Shown here piece by piece: positions 28,347 to 39,504 of a DNA stretch of 64,000 nt. Every line of letters starts with the position of its first letter. Position 1 is the stretch's first letter. The stretch lies in contig NW_027117346.1 in NCBI RefSeq assembly GCF_038025025.1, forward strand, positions 1,674,001 to 1,738,000, in the 5' to 3' direction. This stretch comes from Phyllosticta citribraziliensis. Lineage: Eukaryota. The notes beneath the pieces were generated by a model. It was not told where the DNA came from and searched no databases. It saw only the letters and a program-made list of their open reading frames with translations. The translations under genes were made by a program, and so were the position numbers.

Positions 28347-28681
28347 GATTGAGCAGCCCGCGCAGCGACCTAGAGATGCTCAAGAAGTTATTATGCGAGG
28401 GCCATGACGGTCGGGTGAGGATCAGCCCTACGAAACAACCGAGTTGAACCAAGAACGGTTTGGGGGAAGGCGATGCGACGGTAGGGTGGATGGTGGAGCT
28501 GCAGCGAAACTGACGGGGCTTGGGGACCGAAAGGGACCTCCGCGGCGACGGGCAGGGATGCGCCCGGGCGCCAGGCCATGGTCGGCGCGTCCGCCAATCG
28601 CCGCGTTCCCGCCGCCGCCGCCGCCAGGGCAGCTTTTTTCTACTCAACACCACAACAACGGCCATCGCAAACAACAAGACC

Positions 28682-31012
28682 ATGGCTCCCTCCAAGGACG
28701 CCTACGCGGCGAGCACGCTCAAGGCTGTGTCCTACCGCATCTCTTCCCTCCCGTCCAAACAGCTTCCTGCCGCCATTCCTCAAATCACAGCGCTGCTCGT
28801 CCCATGCAAACCCATCTTGTCCTCTTCTCACAACTCGACGGCCAAGGATGCCTCCGAATCCTCGGTTCTGGTCCACAAGTTTAGGACCCAAATTTCAACC
28901 CTTCTCCAGGACAGATCGGCCGAGGGTCGCTGGTCCGCCGTGGTTCTCGCCAAAACAGCAATTGAACTTGGCGGTTGGGAGATGCTCCAAAAGTGCGGAC
29001 CGTGGGTTCGAGGACTGCTAGGCATCCTGTCCAAGCCTGATCCACCTACCACCAAGATTATGGCCATTGTCACTCTCACCAGAATCTTCATGCTCACGCG
29101 TGACTATCAGACGCTAGTCAGAGAGATCACGACGCCTTCGTTGACGCCATTCATAACGAGCTGCCTCAACATACTTGCAAAATCCTCACGCCTTGAGCCA
29201 GGGACTCCGCAGTTGGTCGAGACTACTCTTGAGAGCTTTGCGAGACTCCTGCCCCGTCATCCCACGACATTCCGCCCACACCTGGGTAAAATCAGCCGCT
29301 TCCTTGCTGATGTTGTGGCTTCAGCGTCTTCGACACAAGCAGCGCATTTGACAGATGACGGTCTTGTCGCAGCACGAAAGCTATTTGTGCAGCTTCCCTG
29401 CTGTGCTACAAAAGGAGCATCCAAAGAAGAATGGGAAAAATCCCTGCTCAATGTCGTGTCTGCTGCTCACCAAACAGCAAATAAGGTTTTCCGTGGTGTT
29501 CTCGAAGAGTGGGAGTCCGTCGCAGGGGTTCAAATATCAAACACGTCAAATCAAACCGCGGACCAAGCCTTAGCGGAACAGGATGCGCACGGGTTCACTG
29601 GATGGACGGGCATTTATGCTGGTGCCGACCGTCTTGTAGGCCTTCTCCGGTTGCTTGCAGAATTCACTACAACTCCGACCGCACCTGCTACGCCCGTCAG
29701 CTATCGCATCGCACACGTTATGGATTTGATCACAAGGCTGTTGGCTGTGACGGCTCCCGCCGCGAGAGGCAGGCAAGAAGGCGGTATGACATTTAATGAC
29801 CAGATCGGAAAAGAGGAGCGCAATGATTTGTGGACCATCTTACCCCAAATCCATGTTGCAGCAATCGGCCTCGCAGAAGCTTTGATTGAACGGTTTGGAC
29901 AGGCCATGACTCCTCTTATGGAGTTCCTCATCGAACGCCTTGTGTACTTGTTCCAAGAGGAACAGCTTCTCCCATCTGTTCGTGCTGCGGTGTACTCCAT
30001 CCTCACTCAAATGTTGCCTCTCATTGGACATGGTCTCCAAGGATTGCAAGTCAAGAGTTTGAACGTTGTTGCGCACGCTTGTTGCGACGATCTTCTCCCA
30101 CGCAAGAAATCAAAGTCCGTTGAGAACGCAGCTGTTGCTGCCAAAAACGGGAATAAGAATATTTCGCAGGGTTCCTTAAACGCGGACAGCTTTCTCAAAG
30201 CCCAACAACCTCTCGCGTTGGGAACGACTGTTCCTTGTGGCTTGCGAGATCATGCATCTGCGCTTCTCTCAACTTTAATCTTCCAACTACCAGCAGACTT
30301 GGTTGATCACGTTGTGCGCAGTCGCATGGACCAGGTTGCAGTCTTGACCAGACATGAGGAAGCTCTTATTTCGAGCTGCTTGAATGACTCCGTCAGCAAC
30401 AGTCCCAGCCTCTTGCCTCTCCTGGCAAGATTGTATTCGTCCAAACCAGCGGTTGAAGCACTTTTGAGGCCACGATTGCCTGTCATAAAAACAAACAGCG
30501 GCAGAAACCTCGATCACCAAGAGTTTGAAGAGGAAGACGAAAGCGAGGATGGTAGCGATTCGGAAAAGCAAGAGGTCGAAGAAAACGAGGATCATCAGGA
30601 AACGAAAGAGGACATGGAAGTCGACACTTCTCCGGTTCAGACCAAACCCGCTGAAGTGGAGCAGCCAAAGCCCCATGCTCCAGACTCGATTCAAGAAAAT
30701 GGGACAGACGCCATTGTTGGAAGCGCAGGTGTCAAACCCCTCGCTTTCCAAGACGGACCTGAGAAGCGACAGAGCGAAAATGTCGAAGCGCACGCTCCGT
30801 CCCCCAAACGGGCTCGAATTTCGAGTCCGCCGGAGGATTCGCCAAGTGAAAAGAGTCCTGTGCAAAGTGAGCAAACACGCGGGTCTTCATCTGCAGCCAT
30901 GGAACAGACGAACTACGAGACGGAAGAGCTTGAAGACGACGATGAAGACGTGGAAATTCCCTCTCTGGTGATGGGTGATGATGATGATGAGGAAGAAGAA
31001 GAAGAAGAATAA
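28682..31012 (+). CDS. RIX1: Pre-rRNA processing protein Rix1 (PELP1 family, rixosome subunit)
   Basis: VHKFRTQISTLLQDRS.EGRW.AVVL.K..IE.GGWE.L, WVRGLL.IL.KPDP, TLTRIF.LT.DYQTLVREITTPSL..F, EALLRPRLP. Acidic C-terminal tail. Confidence 0.88.
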   Translation: MAPSKDAYAASTLKAVSYRISSLPSKQLPAAIPQITALLVPCKPILSSSHNSTAKDASESSVLVHKFRTQISTLLQDRSAEGRWSAVVLAKTAIELGGWEMLQKCGPWVRGLLGILSKPDPPTTKIMAIVTLTRIFMLTRDYQTLVREITTPSLTPFITSCLNILAKSSRLEPGTPQLVETTLESFARLLPRHPTTFRPHLGKISRFLADVVASASSTQAAHLTDDGLVAARKLFVQLPCCATKGASKEEWEKSLLNVVSAAHQTANKVFRGVLEEWESVAGVQISNTSNQTADQALAEQDAHGFTGWTGIYAGADRLVGLLRLLAEFTTTPTAPATPVSYRIAHVMDLITRLLAVTAPAARGRQEGGMTFNDQIGKEERNDLWTILPQIHVAAIGLAEALIERFGQAMTPLMEFLIERLVYLFQEEQLLPSVRAAVYSILTQMLPLIGHGLQGLQVKSLNVVAHACCDDLLPRKKSKSVENAAVAAKNGNKNISQGSLNADSFLKAQQPLALGTTVPCGLRDHASALLSTLIFQLPADLVDHVVRSRMDQVAVLTRHEEALISSCLNDSVSNSPSLLPLLARLYSSKPAVEALLRPRLPVIKTNSGRNLDHQEFEEEDESEDGSDSEKQEVEENEDHQETKEDMEVDTSPVQTKPAEVEQPKPHAPDSIQENGTDAIVGSAGVKPLAFQDGPEKRQSENVEAHAPSPKRARISSPPEDSPSEKSPVQSEQTRGSSSAAMEQTNYETEELEDDDEDVEIPSLVMGDDDDEEEEEEE

Positions 31013-31942
31013 GTACAAGGCGATTGACCGCGGAAACTTGGAGATAGAAGAGTTCAAAATGAGTATCCACATCGCTTCCAACCGGACATTACGGATCCAT
31101 CGCCAAGTGTGCCGCGAACCATTGAATGTCTGGAGAAGCCGTTGCCTAGAAACGGCCACGGAATGGCGGGGTTCCTCGTGTTCCACTGAAGGACTGGTGG
31201 AGATGAGACAGCCGCGTGGGCCCTAAAAACAGCAACAGTAATTGCCGGCCAGCCTGGCAGAGATGACGAGCAGCTGGTGGTGTTGTGTTGCAGTCAGCGA
31301 TGACGCATCCGGGACCAAATACCGCGGACTTGCTCGCGCGAGTGGCTCGCTCAGAAACAACTGTCGCATGCTAATCTCGAACCGTCAGACCCTGTCTTTA
31401 AGCTGACATCAAGGCTTACTGCAACCGATCCAGCCCTGCGTCAACCGCCTCAGTTCCCCGATTCGGGCACCTGGACAGCTGCGCGGACGGCTGAGCGTCT
31501 CCGTCGCCTTGGTGCCTAGGGCCGTTGCGTGAGATTCTCGATGCAACATATGAAGCCGAATGCTTCCCATGTCCCAACGTGAAAGATACCGTATGGTTCT
31601 GAGTTGGGCCAGCAGAAGGGATGAGGTCATGATGGTCTAGACCTGGATCTTTGTTCCTTGCGTCACTGCAGCCGCCAACGCCATCCATTCTTCTTCAAGC
31701 GCCACTAGCCCGTAAGATTTTGGCATTGCCTCGTACTGACCTTTGACCTCTCCCAGTCTACCCGGACTCCAACCTGAAATCGCGTTTGGCTCCATCTTGT
31801 CCACGAAAGACCACGAACCCACGAACATCGAGAATGCGTCAACTTTGCGCGCATCTAGAGAACCGGATCATTCTCTGAAAGCGACGCTCGTTCCTGGCTC
31901 TGGATCAAACAAGTCGGCGCATTTGCCCTGCTTGCTTGCGGA

Positions 31943-34900
31943 ATGAACAATGGCGTCTCGGCAGAGGGTGTTGCCCACACCGAGGTTACAGAGACGAGCC
32001 ATAACAGTAGCTTGGCAGCCCTGGCTCTTACCGGCAAAGAAAAAGACTCGCATCCCACAATGAACACGCGCCAGGAAGATGGATCGGAAAAAGGTCAACC
32101 TGTTGTGGACGTGCTCAAGGCTGTTGGTCTTGTGGACTTCCTAGCCCTGGATCCAAGGCCTACCTTTATTCTCGACTTGGACATTACCGACAAACCTGGA
32201 TGCCTTCTTCAGCCTGTTTATTCCAACCGTGCCCTACAAGCCACGGTGGATGGCGATCTCATGTCCTTGGTGTCTGGAAAAGAGAATATGGAATCGCCAG
32301 GTGCATACTCTGTCAGACCGTACTCCAAATTCCGCAAGTGGATGTTCAACAAGAAGAAGGACCCAAAAGCGGAGACATTCGCGTACAGTGGGCTGCGGTG
32401 GACAAAAGTCATCATACAGGGTCGATGGAGCGTGATCAGCGCATTGGAACTGGACCGTCGCCCAACGATTCCGGACATTGTAACAACTGAAGTCTCTCCA
32501 TCCGTAAGCAGGGCAACAACACCTGGATCGAGGACTCCGAAGGAAGCCACCCATTTGAGAAGACCCAGCAATGTGCGAACACGCAGCCACGACGATATTC
32601 ATATTCTGCAACAGAGTTCGGGCTGGGCACATGTGCATGAGGACGCCATTTCTCGCCTATCGCGGCTATCTCACATACAGTCCGCAGGTCGAGACGGTAT
32701 TGCCGATTTTGTCAACGGATTCGATTGGACTGTGGACCCTCCATCAGGCAAAATGACCGAGTGGATGAACTTTGCGCGCTCCATTGATTGGAGCATGACC
32801 CCTCTCGGCCCAAGGCATTCCTGGTCGCCTCAACTTCGACTGATGGCCAATCTCATCTTGCGGGACACCAGACCAGCTGTGTTATTCTGGGGCCCAGAGG
32901 TCGTGATGATCTACAACGAACCGTACATCGAGCTTATCGGGGACCTTCATCCGTTCTCCATGGGACAGAGTGCGGCTGTGGCATTGAAGGATTACTGGGA
33001 CCATTTTACCCCATTTACAGCCCGGAACATTCTCGTTGGTGAGACTGTCCAGGAACACAACCTTCCAATCTTTCTAATGAGAAATGGCGTCCTGGAAGAA
33101 ACTTATTATTCCTTTTCGATGATACCGATTATAGGGGACCATGGGACTGTGGCTGGCCACTATGAGCCAGTGACAGAGACAACAAAACACGTAGTCTCCC
33201 AGAGAAGACTGGAAACACTCTTACTGCTCAGCGAAGAGACCTCGCGCGCTAGGACCCTGGATTCTTTTTGGCATCTCGTTCTCGGCGCTCTTTCGCATAA
33301 CGACAAGGACGTTCCATTCGCTTTGCTGTACGCGATGGAGGACGAGGACTCCAGCGACACCATGTCCATGTCAACAACTTCTTCGACGATGCCCAAACAG
33401 TGTGTACTCAAAGGCTCCTTGGGCGTACCTGACGGACATCCTGCTGCACCACACCGGCTAGACTTTCTCGCGGGCATGGATGGTTTCGTGCCCTTCTTTC
33501 GCGAAGCCATGAATTCGAGGGGGCCCACAGTGTTGGACTTGGGCGATGGAACCTTACCAAAGGGCATGCTCGATGGTATCCACTGGCGAGGCTTCGGACA
33601 TCCTTGCCAATACGGCGTCATTTGCCCGATCACCCCTACTACTACGAAGAACGTATTGGGATTCCTTGTGGTCGGCATCAACCCTCGGCGTCCGTACGAT
33701 GAAGATTATCAGAAGTTCATGAGCGTCACTAGCCGCCTACTGGCCACTTGTGGGGCATCTGTGGTGCTTCACGAGGAGGACATCCGCCAGCGAGAAAAGA
33801 TGATTACTCAAGCTGAGCTGATGAAGGCGAATCTTACCGAGCAGCTCATTGTCTCTCAAAAGGAAGCCGAACGGAACGAGAAGAAATTTCAACGCTTTGC
33901 AGAGAGAGCTGATGTGGGAATTTTCATTGTCGGCTCAGACGGCCGCTTCACGTACAGGAACAAGGCCTGGTTCAACGTTGCGCAGTTGTCCGAAGATCTC
34001 ATCGATTTTCGTGAGACCTGGCGAGAGCTCTGCCTCCCGGAAGACCAAGGCCGATGTGAAAAGCACTTTGCAAAGCTCATGACGGAGAAAGTCCAGGTGG
34101 TGATGGAGTTGCGACTGAAGAGGAGCTGGAAGCCTCCTCATGACACTCCAGACTTGGACAAAGATCATTGGAATCACAGCATGTGGATTTTGATATCCGC
34201 TTTCCCGGAGCTCAGCGACAGCGGCGAGGTCCAGGAGATTGTCGGTGCAGTCACGGATATTAGGTACGTAGGCCTCATTTCCTTGGGTATCGGTGCTAAT
34301 CTTGAACATCCAGCCGTCTCAAATGGGGAGAAGGCCTTCAGAAACAGCGGACAGACGATGCTTTGAGATCCAAGAGGCAGCTCGAAAGTTTCATTGATAC
34401 GACATCGCATGAGATGCGCAACCCACTGAGTGTAAGCCCGGAACCCAACATGGCTCATCGTAGCACTTCGCCTCTGTGGCTAACAGCACCAGGCAATCAT
34501 TCAATGCGCGGATAGCATCATCGAATCCCATCGCCACAAGATTAATTCGAATCAAGAGCTAGCTCCTCCATTCCTCCAGCTTCTCAGGGATGGTGTCGAA
34601 GCTGCTCAAACGATTGCCCAATGCAGTCAGCACATGAAATGCATTGTTGATGATGTCCTCACCATGTCCAAGCTCGATTCTGGTCTCTTGGTTATGACTC
34701 CAGTCGATGCACAGCCAGACTCGATAGGCCGGCACGCTGTCAAGATGTTTGAAGCCGAGGCAAAAGCTGCAGATATTGCCTTGAGATTTCGCACCGAACC
34801 CTCCTATCGCAATATTGTTGGAGCAGATTTCGTATCTCTCGATCCAACCAGACTCCTGCAAATCCTGATCAATCTGGTCACGAATGCGATCAAGTTCACG

Positions 34901-36034
34901 CGACTTGAATCAACCAGAAAAATCACAGTCTCAGTCGGAGCTGCGCTCGCTCGTCCCGTCTGCTATCCCAACGAAACGGATTCCAGCCTTCATACTGCTG
35001 CCGCTGAGGAAGCACCGAGCCTTCTTGCAGACTGGGCGCAAGACCCCAGCCAAATCCTCTTCATCAAGTATTCAGTAGAAGACACAGGCCGAGGATTATC
35101 GGAGGACGAAAAGGATCTTCTCTTTGCACGATTCAGCCAGGCCAGTCCCCGCACTCACATAAGCTACGGGGGCAGTGGCCTGGGTCTCTTCATTTCCCGA
35201 CGTCTCTCTGAGATGCATGGTGGTGCAATATGGTTTTCGAGCGAAAGCAAGCAAGGAAGCACGTTCTCCTTCTACATCAAGGCGAGGAGGAGCACGGACG
35301 TGCAAGATGGCCTTGAAGAAGCGACACAGCTGATTCCAGATCTAATGACGCCCTTGGCTGCCGAGAGCCCATCGTCAGAGTCCCCGCCCCGTAGGAAAGT
35401 AAGCGGGGGATCTTTCCAAGAAAACGAAAAAGCAGACGAGAGGAAGGCAAGACCGAAGCCCTTTAGGAGACCTTCTATGCAAAGAAGACTGTCGATAATT
35501 CCGCAAACCCCGGTGCACATCCTCCTGGTCGAAGACAACCTTATCAATCAGCGCGTTCTCGCAAACCAACTACGCAGCAAAGGCTGGGAAGTCTCGGTCG
35601 CCAACCATGGCGCTGAAGCGCTCGAGTTTCTTCGCCGTACAAAGTACTGCGCACACGCGCAAAACACGACGTCCTCAGCTCCAAGCCCCACCTCGGCGAC
35701 CTCTTCCCCCGCAACTACCGCAAATGACACGGCAAAGTCATCGTTCGACTCTTCCAAAGCCGAGCCCCCAATAAGCCTCGACCTAATTCTCATGGATTGG
35801 GAAATGCCCGTTATGGACGGTCTGACAGCCGTACGTGAAATACGTCGCCTGCAGCGAGAAGGCACCGTCAAAGGGCATGTGCCAGTCATAGCGGTCACGG
35901 CCAACGTAAGAGGGGAGCAGATAAACACGGCAATGGAAGCCGGCATGGACGACGTTGTGAGCAAACCGTTTCGAGTGCCCGAGTTGGCGAAAAAGATGAC
36001 AGAGCTGGTGTGCAAGATGGGCGGACATGGCTGA
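31943..36034 (+). CDS. Hybrid two-component histidine kinase (PAS-like/GAF-like sensors, HisKA, HATPase_c, REC). Predicted join(31943..34263,34314..34431,34493..36034)
   Basis: DWSMTPLGP..SW, H-box FIDTTSHEMRNPLS|AI, N-box NLVTNAIKFT, DTGRG, FARFSQAS, GGSGLGL. Receiver LLVEDN, LMDWEMP.MDG, TAN, SKPF. Two canonical introns restore frame. Confidence 0.95.
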
Positions 36035-37713
36035 GGGGAGGGGCCCGCCGCCTCCCGGTAGAGCTTAATGCCGCAATCGCTGATCGTCTTTCAAAAGGAA
36101 TTTCGAGGGCGCCTTTGACATCGCGGCAAACTCGTGGCTTCCCGATCGCCTCAGTCCACCCAGTAGCCAATCAAACGACCTCGACGCCTGTTGGCGCAGA
36201 ACACCATCACAGTGCTCGTATGCATCTCCACGTGGGCCAACATATGGTTGCAATATACCGGACATTCCGGAGAAGTGTCTCTCAGATGGTTATGCAGGGA
36301 GACCGCGACTCTGCGCTTCCAGATCACCGTACATATTGATCCAACACTGTTTTTCCAACCCGTCAATGCACTTCATCACATACACCGACTTCCGCGTATA
36401 CGCATCTCTACGTGTTAGCAACACTGCACCTCAATACTCTTACGCCATTTCCGGGGGTCTCACGAAAGCGGGAAATATTGGGGCGAACATAATCCACACC
36501 ACTCTAGACTCGTCTAGGGCATGCCTTCATTCTAGCCTAGGGAAAAGAGTGTCCTTTGATGCCTCGAAGGCGGCAGCTGCCTTCACGCAAATAATTGCTG
36601 CGACTCGAAGCTTATGCAAGGCAACAGATACCATTGAATTCATCTCTTTCTCGCAAAAAGTCCATTTGCTTTGCAAGCAACTGATTACTTGGAAGCACTT
36701 TCGAGCTAGGTTGCCAACACCCCACTCTTGCAGTGGATTCTGCAAGTTTCTTCGCACTTGTAGTCAGTGGGACGACGATAAAACTGGCGTCAAAGCTTTT
36801 GCCACGGCAAGCCGCAACGAACAACCCAGCAAGACATGGCGGGCCGCATGATAAACGCTTTCCTGGCCGACATGGCCGAGGCTCACCCGCCGCGTTCTCA
36901 CGGAGGCCGAAGCCAACACCACGCAGCCTCATTGGCAGGGTCTTTGGGGTCAAAAGGAAAAGCGCCGAAAATCGACGGGCGTGGTGGAGGGAAGGCAACG
37001 GCCACAACCCCACTGAGCATGTTCCAGAGCTTCCACCCGTCGAGCCTGTGAGACTGTCCCACCAAAGGACGGTCTGATTCGCCTGGAAATCAGAGGCGTT
37101 TGCTTATTCCGTACCGACGAACGGGGTCGTGTTTGTTTTCGGAAACGAGACTCGACTTGATGCTACCGCAGAAAAGACATGCTCAAGTCGTCGATAAAGA
37201 TGTTGCAGCTTTGATGTAACGGCGGGTACCTGCATCCTGGGTTTGTCATTGGTCGCCTTTCGAATCCCACAGAAGGTGTTGTGGCAAACATCGTTAGAAC
37301 GAATTGCTCGCAGGCTGGCCAGCGTGCAAAAGACGGCATCGAAAGTGACCCTCCAAAGGCCTGTGAGGTGATCACCTGGTGGATTCCCTTGTTACAGCAG
37401 ATCTTTTGACTTGAACTAACCCAGAGAGGCATCCTTGCGGGAGAAGACTCCCGCATCCGACCAGGGCAATGCGACTACGCGAGCTGATCCTGGATCAAGT
37501 CTGCAGATCTGAACTTTATTTCGTCTTCTGGCGTCACTCACTGCCTGCCTGGTTGTATAAGTTTTTGTCAATCAGGACCACAGATTTTGCCAACCGCACA
37601 TCTTCAACCTTTACTGAATTTCTCTCAGGATCTCCCAGCTTTCCCCTCGTCTTTGGACCTCCGCTCCACTGCAGGCGCTGCTTCTCGCCAAATCTCAAAG
37701 CAGTCACGCAGAA

Positions 37714-39504
37714 ATGTCTCAACACGACATTGCCACGCTGGCGCAGGTGGTTACGCTGAAATCCTTGGGTCTGTTGAGCGACTCTGAAATCACCTACCGG
37801 ACCGGCGTCTCCAGCGATGCAATTCATGGCATTTACGAAATTGCAACGCAGCGCGGTTTTGACCCAAGGACGACTAGAACCATCACGAAACGACATCTTG
37901 CGCCGTCAATGTCCGCACAGGCTCTACCAGTCCGTGTGCAGTTGCTGATTCTCAGCCATCTGCCTCTGACCAGCTTGATTAAGATGCACTGTGTTTCGCG
38001 GCACTGGCGCAATCTGATTGATAGCCAACTGGATTCGCGCAAAAGCCCTATTTCTTCCTCTCGTCGAGCTCTTCTTCAAATCTACCTCGAGGCGATCAAT
38101 CAACCATTCTTCATTGCGTCAAGAAAACACATACTGCCGCATGTGCGGCCGTTTGATCGCCAGGCATATGTTGCCGCTCTTGCACGATCATTTGATGGCA
38201 ACTTTGACGGCAGCTCGATGGCTCGGCTCCCCGAAGACTTCCTTACCTGGCTTCTGGAGTGGCCTTCGTCCGCCGTCATCGGCATGCTATGGCCAGGAAT
38301 CGACAGCGACTTTGGAAGCATCCCACCCACACCGAGGACCTCTTTTACAAAACTCCACAAGCACGTCGATCGCGAGCGTCGTTCTGCCGCCGTTGCCCGC
38401 TGGTACCGAGCCGGCTATCGTAACAAGCTCCCTGATCCTTCACGACTCCTCTCGTCACCGAGGCCCTTCTTTCCAACCAGCAGCCATGTCCAGGACCTCG
38501 ACCCTTGGCCCACTCCTCCCCCGACCCCGCCCATCACTAGCCCAAACTCGAGCTGTCCTTCTTCTCCAACGACAGCAACTGCTCCGCCGCTCTTTTGTCC
38601 GCTTCCGCCGACAGCGGGCGCCGCGTTCGAGCTGGAGCTCGAGCGCTTCATCCAAACAACCGAATCGTCCCCTCAGATGCGCTCCGTGCTGGTCCTGTCG
38701 CCCGCCACACTAGGCTCGCCCTCCCACTCGGTGCCGACATCTCCCCCCGAAACACCATCACCTGCCTCTCCAGTATCCACCCCACCTCCCATGGCGCCAG
38801 GCTCGACGTCCTACTTTCCGGCGCCAGGAACCTATCAACACACCCCCAACAGCAGCACCGGCAGCAGCAACAGTAGCGGCAGCACATTCGATGGCAGCGC
38901 GGCCGCTCTGAACGACGCACCCAAACCCAAGCCCGGCCGCGTCTACGCCCAGGTTTGCGGCGCCCCGCGCACCGTCGTGTTTGCCAGCTGGACCAAGTAC
39001 CTGGAGGCGAAGCTGCGCACGGTCGAGGCGTTCTGGGACGAGTGGGGCCGCCGCGAGGAGGCCGCCGCGCTGTATGCGGATCCGCATCCAAGGGGCCATC
39101 GCGACACGCCGCCGCCAGCTGCTCGTGGAAAAGCGGCCGACGGTGATGACGGCGTCGCGGTTGGCGAGGGGGCGGGCGTGTGGGTCGAAGGGCAAGCGGG
39201 CGACGAGCCGTCGAGCGAGAAGTCCGCATCTTCTGCTGCTCCGTCGCCGGATGCCTCGCCCCAGAGAGCCGACTGGATCGGCCGCGAGGTCAGTGGCATG
39301 CAGGCGTTTGGCGTCGCCGGCGGCGCCCAACGACCTGGCGTGAACGAGAAGCGCGTCGCGTGGGGAGCAGAGACGCGGCTCGAATACGAGCGAGGGGAGA
39401 AAGAGGTGCAGAAGCGATGGCGCAGGAGCTGGCGCTGGCGGTTGGGGTGGGAAGTGGGCAAGTGGAGGGCCAAGCGGTTGGTTTTGGGTGTGGCTCAGGG
39501 GTAG
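37714..39504 (+). CDS. F-box protein with an N-terminal transposase-like helix-turn-helix (alternative start 37909)
   Basis: F-box ALPVRVQLLILSHLPLTSLIKMHCVSRHWRNLI, followed by a structured block ..PFDRQAYV.AL..LPEDF.TWLLEWP..AVIG.LWPG and a Pro/Ser-rich tail. Intronless 596-aa ORF. Confidence 0.82.
   Translation: MSQHDIATLAQVVTLKSLGLLSDSEITYRTGVSSDAIHGIYEIATQRGFDPRTTRTITKRHLAPSMSAQALPVRVQLLILSHLPLTSLIKMHCVSRHWRNLIDSQLDSRKSPISSSRRALLQIYLEAINQPFFIASRKHILPHVRPFDRQAYVAALARSFDGNFDGSSMARLPEDFLTWLLEWPSSAVIGMLWPGIDSDFGSIPPTPRTSFTKLHKHVDRERRSAAVARWYRAGYRNKLPDPSRLLSSPRPFFPTSSHVQDLDPWPTPPPTPPITSPNSSCPSSPTTATAPPLFCPLPPTAGAAFELELERFIQTTESSPQMRSVLVLSPATLGSPSHSVPTSPPETPSPASPVSTPPPMAPGSTSYFPAPGTYQHTPNSSTGSSNSSGSTFDGSAAALNDAPKPKPGRVYAQVCGAPRTVVFASWTKYLEAKLRTVEAFWDEWGRREEAAALYADPHPRGHRDTPPPAARGKAADGDDGVAVGEGAGVWVEGQAGDEPSSEKSASSAAPSPDASPQRADWIGREVSGMQAFGVAGGAQRPGVNEKRVAWGAETRLEYERGEKEVQKRWRRSWRWRLGWEVGKWRAKRLVLGVAQG

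Follow-up and report, generated by a model that had tools for sequence, protein, structure and literature searches.

A host–transposase fusion joining a Tc1-like helix-turn-helix to an F-box in fungi of the order Botryosphaeriales

The closest described systems are F-box genes that have captured part of a transposon. According to Almeida et al. 2025 (Mol Biol Evol, PMC12062965), the F-box A2 proteins of Caenorhabditis (fbxa-192, fbxa-210, fbxa-215 and others) begin with a mariner-type helix-turn-helix (HTH; IPR041426), which is followed by the F-box and then by an FTH domain. The main text of that study, which credits an earlier notice of the family to Thomas 2006, dates the HTH capture to ~20 million years (My) ago and counts ~30 genes in C. 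elegans. It reports no DNA binding in electrophoretic mobility shift assays (EMSA) and tagged proteins that were not nuclear, and from pull-downs and AlphaFold screens it describes the HTH as a protein-interaction platform. Its screen of 10 million proteins placed 496 of 497 F-box–HTH proteins in nematodes, and the authors count two independent events in which an F-box gene took up a transposon domain, the second being zebrafish F-box::CxC7. Fungi appear in that main text only in two reference titles, a fungal row in its table S1 being possible; the fungal co-option screen of Oggenfuss et al. 2024 (PMC10799480) contains no 'F-box' in its main text or two supplementary files, and literature full-text searches returned no fungal fusion of an F-box with a transposase HTH. 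Here we describe an F-box gene of Phyllosticta citribraziliensis, within a 64,000-nucleotide stretch of contig NW_027117346.1 (positions 1,674,001 to 1,738,000; hereafter the window, to which all coordinates refer), whose first ~62 residues are a PAI-like HTH domesticated from a fungal Tc1-like DDE transposase, in which it is the first HTH (HTH1). The kind is already known from nematodes; new are the fungal instance, its age and its predicted self-pairing. We favour, with a probability of about 0.6, the reading that this domesticated HTH works alongside the F-box in protein interaction or dimerisation.

The gene is a single intronless open reading frame (ORF) of 596 amino acids at 37714–39504 on the forward strand, and its product (labelled P0001) is identical, letter for letter, to an annotated NCBI protein that starts at 37714 and is a member of a P. 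citrichinensis 90% cluster. No other in-frame ATG lies between this one and a stop ~100 nt upstream, and a second methionine (Met66, 37909–37911) lies four residues N-terminal to the F-box. An earlier note on this DNA, made from the letters alone, had described 65 open codons running into that second methionine and a clear F-box; the residues it quoted are exact, and the F-box exceeds the Pfam cut-offs both as PF00646 (residues 71–105, E 5.2e-7, 29.8 bits, cut-off 20.5) and as F-box-like PF12937 (residues 70–105, 29.2 bits, cut-off 24.3). Besides the F-box, nothing in the Pfam scan of the 596-residue protein exceeds the cut-offs, and the homologue in Neofusicoccum ribis (P0007) matches the F-box profile in the same kind of scan. 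AlphaFold2 places the F-box helices at residues 73–82, 85–94 and 96–107, and weak Foldseek rows lead to Skp1-bound F-boxes (for example, 5ibk_E; root-mean-square deviation (r.m.s.d.) 2.0 over 43 columns, E 0.8). The gene probably encodes a substrate adaptor of the SCF (Skp1–cullin–F-box) type.

Similarity to transposases is confined to the N-terminus. A phmmer search with residues 1–65 against 1.84 billion representatives gave 18 matches at E ≤ 1e-3: an orthologue (P0004), the HTH–F-box protein P0007, two evidently unrelated repeat proteins matching over short stretches (P0019 and P0020), and 14 short fungal-type proteins with 40–53% identity across residues 1–62. Matches to fungal HTH proteins range from E 1.5e-6 to 9e-4 in this library of 1.84e9 proteins. 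Among the 17 matches scanned with Pfam, seven contain HTH_23 at E ≤ 0.01 and two (P0011 and P0012) contain HTH_Tnp_Tc3_2 directly after the matching HTH. P0009, P0013 and P0015 end in ...EDAPRSGRP, the transposase motif that the earlier note had named and that proves to be real. A 261-residue fragment (P0037) combines HTH_23, HTH_Tnp_Tc3_2 and HTH_32, and a metagenome contig scan started from it, with 80 of 207 relatives kept, yielded 10 ORFs with the HTH in a pattern search of the 80 loci, 7 of them 385–444 residues long. Five of these seven were scanned with Pfam; HTH_23 and HTH_Tnp_Tc3_2 are present in 5/5 and DDE_3 in 4/5. By these domain assignments, the parent family is a Tc1-like DDE transposase.

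When 11 N-termini of bona fide transposases, and none of the fusion proteins, were made into a profile, it scored residues 1–62 at 54.7 bits (E 5e-15 at Z = 12000). Against a background of 787 stop-to-stop six-frame ORFs from the window, its sole match is the ORF holding the F-box gene, the other 786 giving none. The similarity ends at ...RHLAPS, opposite ...H(V/L)EDAPRSGRP of the transposases, that is, just before their linker, as the earlier note had also claimed. Sequence comparison therefore identifies residues 1–62 as homologous to HTH1 of fungal Tc1-like transposases, and the captured piece stops short of the GRP linker and is fused straight to the F-box. The rest of an element is missing: the 596-residue protein has no Pfam DDE hit, a second HTH was not found in the window by tblastn, and tblastn of P0037, P0012 and P0011 against the window aligns only residues 4–59 (51–99 for P0011), with nothing else below E 1. 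Between 36500 and 39800, a search for terminal repeats yielded a single weak inverted pair (18 nt, 78% complementary), in keeping with the absence of a DDE domain and terminal inverted repeats that had been reported from the letters.

Structure prediction agrees with this origin. Two AlphaFold2 models (predicted local distance difference test (pLDDT) 84.7 and 79.1) contain the same three helices at residues 6–18, 23–30 and 34–46, each with pLDDT ~90, followed by a disordered linker and then the F-box helices; the N-terminal module is a simple tri-helical HTH. VIA-align pairs it with the Tc3 transposase 1u78_A (Z 5.4, r.m.s.d. 1.8 over 45 residues), on a par with other tri-helical HTHs, and Foldseek ranks 1tc3_C at 45 and, for the two-domain model, 6pax_A at 15 and 1u78_A at 43. 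In the ESM Atlas, residues 1–65 score ≤0.79, with HTH_23, the Sleeping Beauty HTH and the Tc3 HTH as leads, and P0037 scores 0.97 to an Ascomycota transposase cluster. Homology is carried by the sequence evidence; the fold agrees with it and does not prove it, because fold searches return only generic HTHs.

The fusion is shared by relatives well beyond the species. The nearest relatives of the protein are F-box proteins of P. citrichinensis (91%), P. citricarpa (78%) and P. capitalensis (72%). Of the first 65 positions, 62 do not vary among the four Phyllosticta proteins, at overall identities down to 72%, and the C-terminal half diverges with many indels. P. citriasiana also has the fusion (P0047), which is found in all in five Phyllosticta species, N. 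ribis and Botryosphaeria dothidea. The order of HTH, F-box and conserved post-F-box region is common to the N. ribis protein P0007 (416 residues) and the B. dothidea proteins P0038 and P0040 (389 residues); residues 1–199 of P0007 align to 37714–38310 with 44% identity (E 3e-42), and the spacing from RGFDP to LPV in the F-box is 20 residues in Phyllosticta, N. ribis and B. dothidea alike. Neofusicoccum and Botryosphaeria belong to the Botryosphaeriaceae and Phyllosticta to the Phyllostictaceae, both in the Botryosphaeriales (Dothideomycetes). Because the fusion is found in both families, it predates their split. Word-index searches with the full protein and with residues 1–65 returned only the three Phyllosticta orthologues; a profile word-index search added, among the matches listed, Botryosphaeria and one transposase fragment.

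Substitution patterns point to constraint on the HTH. Over the 195 bases of 37714–37908, a 10.8-kb DNA contig from run X6, the source of all synonymous and non-synonymous counts given here, differs from the window by 7 changes, all third-position and synonymous, with 0 non-synonymous changes; the chance of 7/7 synonymous changes under neutrality is 7e-5 (25.5% synonymous sites). The next 225 bases hold 6 synonymous and 3 non-synonymous changes, the three amino-acid changes matching P0003, and the 319 bases upstream hold 16 changes and an 84-nt gap. We note that this relative is without the 84 nt at 37311–37394 (37310 is joined to 37395), ~320–400 nt before the start codon, an indel that presumably falls in the promoter. 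The contig of run X1 shows no difference from the window over this stretch and may come from the source of this DNA, that of X9 shows 48 differences in 715 nt and that of X10 shows 10 in 255 nt. The X9 contig covers 37623–38337 colinearly and bridges the HTH and the F-box. X9 and X10 are short low-depth contigs that begin at ~37617–37628, and the X1 and X6 DNA contigs continue upstream; the RNA nature of X9 and X10 being guessed, their starts give a weak hint of a transcript start there. Purifying selection on the HTH is well supported by these codon comparisons, as is the classification of the gene as a domesticated host–transposase fusion, given orthologues with an intact frame. Two expectations attached to the earlier proposal, a fusion conserved in relatives under purifying selection and an upstream segment intact among them, are borne out across three genera and two families.

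If translation began at Met66 (37909), the HTH would instead be a decaying relic or a leader ORF, a reading to which the closeness of Met66 to the F-box and a B. dothidea gene model (P0036, 346 residues) beginning at an internal methionine inside the HTH lend some colour. The other B. dothidea models, P0038 and P0040, contain the whole HTH, the annotated product of the same genome starts at 37714, all three genera keep an open frame of recognisable homology, and the excess of synonymous change and the near-invariance of the 65 residues are at odds with decay, leaving this reading close to refuted. Further models, P0047 (729 residues) and P0050 and P0051 (678 residues), extend 79–132 residues upstream, through a region that is stop-interrupted and poorly conserved here. 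These differing starts look like annotation choices rather than biology, and a start at the HTH is the only one consistent across species.

What the HTH now does is suggested by what it has lost. The net charge of its core is −2 to −3 in 8/8 fusion HTHs versus 0 to +5 in 12 transposase-type sequences, and that of helix 3 is −1 to +1 versus +2 to +6. Arg35, present in 10/11 transposases, is D, N, D, C or Q in five fusion representatives; Arg43, present in 11/11, is I, I, K, L or S in the same five; and Arg9, present in 11/11, is Leu in Phyllosticta. Helix 3 keeps 1–4 of 13 transposase-consensus residues, and the two fungal families agree there at only 2–3 of 13 positions; helix 1 retains 7–10 of 14 consensus residues, and the RGFDP cap keeps 5/5. 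The GRP linker and the second HTH of Tc1-like transposases are gone from the fusion. Because the basic surface and the helix-3 arginines are gone, we infer that the ancestral DNA recognition has been lost, with the fold and the helix-1 surface kept.

These features bear directly on the role proposed in the earlier note, an SCF adaptor aimed at DNA or chromatin, in which the HTH would bind transposon ends or a new site and bring the ubiquitin ligase to chromatin-bound substrates. Conservation of the intact tri-helical fold is strong, helix 3 hardly varies among the Phyllosticta proteins, the basic stretch at residues 52–60 (+4) and the Trp/Arg-rich C-terminal tail could contact nucleic acid, and the main text of PMC12062965 describes many host–transposase fusions as retaining DNA binding. 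Against such targeting stand the acidic core of all eight fusion proteins, the loss of both transposase-conserved helix-3 arginines in 5/5 representatives, the missing linker and second HTH, and a nematode analogue that, by the same account, gave no EMSA shift and was not nuclear. The low sharing of helix 3 between Phyllosticta and the Botryosphaeriaceae is likewise a misfit with a conserved DNA target. We consider DNA targeting unlikely. The earlier proposal of a captured HTH on an F-box as a domesticated adaptor therefore stands in its capture, fusion and selection, and not in its DNA-targeting function.

In the reading that we favour, the HTH would no longer be the DNA-recognition module of the transposase and would most likely be used for protein–protein contacts beside the F-box. 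Through helix 1 it may bring two adaptors together, the task of the D domain in dimeric F-box proteins. These proteins (Fbw7, Cdc4 and β-TrCP) carry the D domain, which is not transposon-derived, just before the F-box. The HTH may also, or instead, give partners or substrates an extra surface to bind, the role put forward for nematode F-box A2. A homodimer model of two copies of residues 1–65 scored 0.64, the best of three controls scoring 0.01. The mark used was reached by 21/30 solved same-chain pairs and 0/23 single chains, and in eukaryotes by 17/29 pairs and 0/30 single chains. The runs agree in 100% of contacts, the partner pLDDT is at least 82, and the predicted symmetric interface comprises helix 1 (residues 5–15, 18 and 20), residues 28–31 and residues 55–62. 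The model supports self-pairing of residues 1–65 without showing it.

The same helix could serve an anti-transposon adaptor, in which helix 1 pairs with Tc1-like transposases and leads to their ubiquitination or to a poisoned mixed oligomer. Helix 1 (10/14) and the RGFDP cap (5/5) have departed least from the transposase consensus, the homotypic interface is predicted to form through helix 1, and environmental fungal contigs contain related transposases whose ORFs are intact. The window itself holds no Tc1-like copy detectable by tblastn, worm fbxa-215 mutants are described in the main text of PMC12062965 as having no consistent change in transposable-element expression, and prolonged conservation in lineages that may have lost the element would speak for a host function. 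This role seems to us quite improbable. Very improbable in our estimate is its fuller form, in which helix 1 pairs the adaptor both with itself and with Tc1-like transposases bearing the same helix, so that the SCF ligase is aimed at the transposase of the parent element; if true, the HTH would survive as a pairing helix rather than to read DNA, the adaptor would amount to a transposon-derived, ubiquitin-based anti-transposon device, and the separate arrival of nematodes at an HTH before the F-box would then hint at a general rule.

Several points weigh against the favoured reading of a captured HTH turned protein-interaction module. As regards origin, residues 1–65 give no HTH_23 row in Pfam at E ≤ 10 (best, wHTH-PRTase_assc, E 0.1) and reach HTH_23 only via intermediates such as P0012 (E 9e-10) and P0022. 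Sequence searches of solved structures gave at best E 1.3 with residues 1–65 and E 0.29 with a 21-row profile, Foldseek against the PDB returned no row at E ≤ 1e-3 for either model, and the predicted fold by itself, with generic HTH matches only (VIA Z ≤ 6), does not single out a transposase. That the gene is expressed and ATG 37714 used is argued from conservation and public gene models. As regards history, an HTH tree of 57 columns and 34 rows, for which the HTH pattern was found in 16/80 loci (the other 64 being left out), supports each fusion clade (99/94 and 98/90) and places the two in a polytomy with P0037-type transposases, requiring two changes. The tree neither shows nor excludes one origin; a single capture before the family split is the simpler reading, favoured because the downstream protein and the spacing are shared, and it would have been followed by retention under purifying selection. 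The profile word-index search found no unfused F-box homologue among the matches listed, and because of this the earlier suggestion that the HTH was a later addition to an older F-box gene is not shown. As regards function, the presumed loss of DNA binding is read from charge and two arginines, the basic linker and tail named above could still contact nucleic acid, and helix 1 could be conserved merely as fold core. The dimer model is a single-sequence prediction for a small predicted domain excised from the protein, and in the calibration only 1/7 eukaryotic pairs without an older solved relative reached the mark, and a pass may reflect memorised structures.

The layout of the gene is collected in Table 1. 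The linker occupies the place of the ...EDAPRSGRP linker of the transposases, whose similarity stops at about residues 62–65. In the C-terminal part, presumably the substrate-binding part, Pro/Ser-rich low-complexity stretches lie between blocks conserved in Phyllosticta (GRVYAQVCGAPRTVVFASWTKYLEAKL... and WIGREVSGMQAFGV), followed by a Trp/Arg-rich tail. This tail (KRWRRSWRWRLGWEVGKWRAKRL, residues ~563–596, 39400–39504) is nearly invariant in four Phyllosticta species and absent from Neofusicoccum; it may direct the protein to the nucleus or nucleolus, or bind nucleic acid or a membrane.

Table 1. Layout of the F-box gene, in window coordinates.
Feature	Position	Strand	Evidence
Whole coding sequence, 596 residues, single exon	37714..39504	+	ORF and annotated NCBI product
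Tri-helical HTH core, transposase-derived, residues 1–51	37714..37866	+	phmmer, transposase-only profile, AlphaFold2, synonymous/non-synonymous counts
Helix 1, residues 6–18	37729–37767	+	AlphaFold2
Helix 2, residues 23–30	37780–37803	+	AlphaFold2
Helix 3, residues 34–46	37813–37851	+	AlphaFold2
RGFDP cap after helix 3, residues 47–51	within 37714..37866	+	
Linker, residues 52–69, basic in Phyllosticta (+4)	37867..37920	+	Alignments; pLDDT <50 for residues 58–66
F-box, residues 70–105	37921..38028	+	Pfam PF00646 / PF12937, AlphaFold2 helices
Post-F-box region, residues 106–199 (LPEDF..W.LEWPS.A....WPG), conserved with Neofusicoccum and Botryosphaeria	38029..38310	+	No Pfam family
C-terminal part, no known family	38311..39504	+	Pfam scan, Phyllosticta alignment
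Possible 5' leader	37617..37713	+	Weak hint: low-depth contigs of relatives, runs X9 and X10

Neighbouring ORFs are ordinary host genes, RIX1 at 28514–31012 and a hybrid kinase at 31859–36034, and the flanks of the F-box gene show no compositional oddity. Directly upstream, 31859–36034 (+) comprises a pair of long ORFs, which carry PAS_4, HATPase_c and Response_reg domains and probably belong to a single hybrid histidine kinase gene interrupted by an intron or a change of frame. The HTH1 also occurs in other settings. A second, host-gene-like family of ~240 residues (P0010, P0023 and P0024, from B. dothidea and Macrophomina phaseolina) consists of the HTH, then KRTGRPRK, then a long Gln/Pro-rich tail; it is conserved between the two genera, is found on 74 contigs and retains a basic HTH (core +4, helix 3 +6), and may on these features be a DNA-binding domesticate. 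A third group (P0006, P0014, P0021 and P0030; 85–153 residues, MARHDIAT.AQALTLR...RGFDPQS, without the RSGRP linker) forms a well-supported clade of the HTH tree (100/99) and may represent truncated gene models or another domesticate.

This would be a third capture of a transposon domain by an F-box gene, in fungi, with a different HTH subtype at the same position, which suggests that the design has been reached repeatedly. Because residues 1–65 match no Pfam model, the fusion is invisible to domain-based screens, and such screens undercount fusions of this kind because the HTH matches no curated domain. A single, old and strongly conserved gene, rather than a fast-expanding family, offers a cleaner system for the role of an HTH beside an F-box, with ligase dimerisation, substrate recruitment and DNA binding as the questions to put to it. 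Some of the host species are citrus pathogens, and a conserved, order-specific ligase adaptor may interest plant pathologists, no link to virulence being drawn here.

Among known systems, the fungal Tc1-like transposases (loci L008, L015, L017 and L022; P0037 and P0012) resemble the fusion over its first ~62 residues, at 35–58% identity, and share the framework D-ATRAQ-VTLK ... TG ... A..RGFDP. They differ in that the fusion is a host gene without the GRP linker, second HTH, DDE domain and terminal repeats, with helix-3 arginines lost and net charge reversed. With the D-domain F-box proteins the fusion has in common a small helical module N-terminal to the F-box, self-pairing being predicted here by the model only. 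Fusions of the SETMAR type for the most part still bind DNA and have their effects on chromatin or transcription. Such fusions, which are named in the main text of PMC12062965, likewise unite the DNA-binding part of a transposase with a host domain under selection, and differ in that the partner domain here is an F-box. According to the same text, zebrafish F-box::CxC7 is also an F-box gene with a captured transposon domain, in that case the zinc-chelating CxC7 domain of a KDZ transposon, in another lineage. The nearest likeness in design is to Caenorhabditis F-box A2: in both, a tri-helical Tc1/mariner-derived HTH stands directly before the F-box and a transposase catalytic domain is missing, purifying selection is described for the worms in the main text of PMC12062965 and found here, and DNA binding was, in that account, not detected in worms and is doubtful in the fungus. 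The worm HTH is of the Mos1/mariner type (IPR041426), whereas the fungal one is HTH1 of Tc1-like elements (HTH_Tnp_Tc3_2 + DDE_3); the worm proteins continue into FTH, whereas here an unrelated region without a family follows the F-box, and a Pfam scan at E ≤ 10 of the P. citribraziliensis protein P0001 and of P0002 found neither the mariner-type HTH nor FTH. The worm family is also expanded and ~20 My old by that account, whereas the fungal gene was seen as one gene per species across two families. Because HTH type, missing FTH and kingdom all differ, the sequences indicate that the Botryosphaeriales gene is not a member of F-box A2 and that the same design was reached independently.

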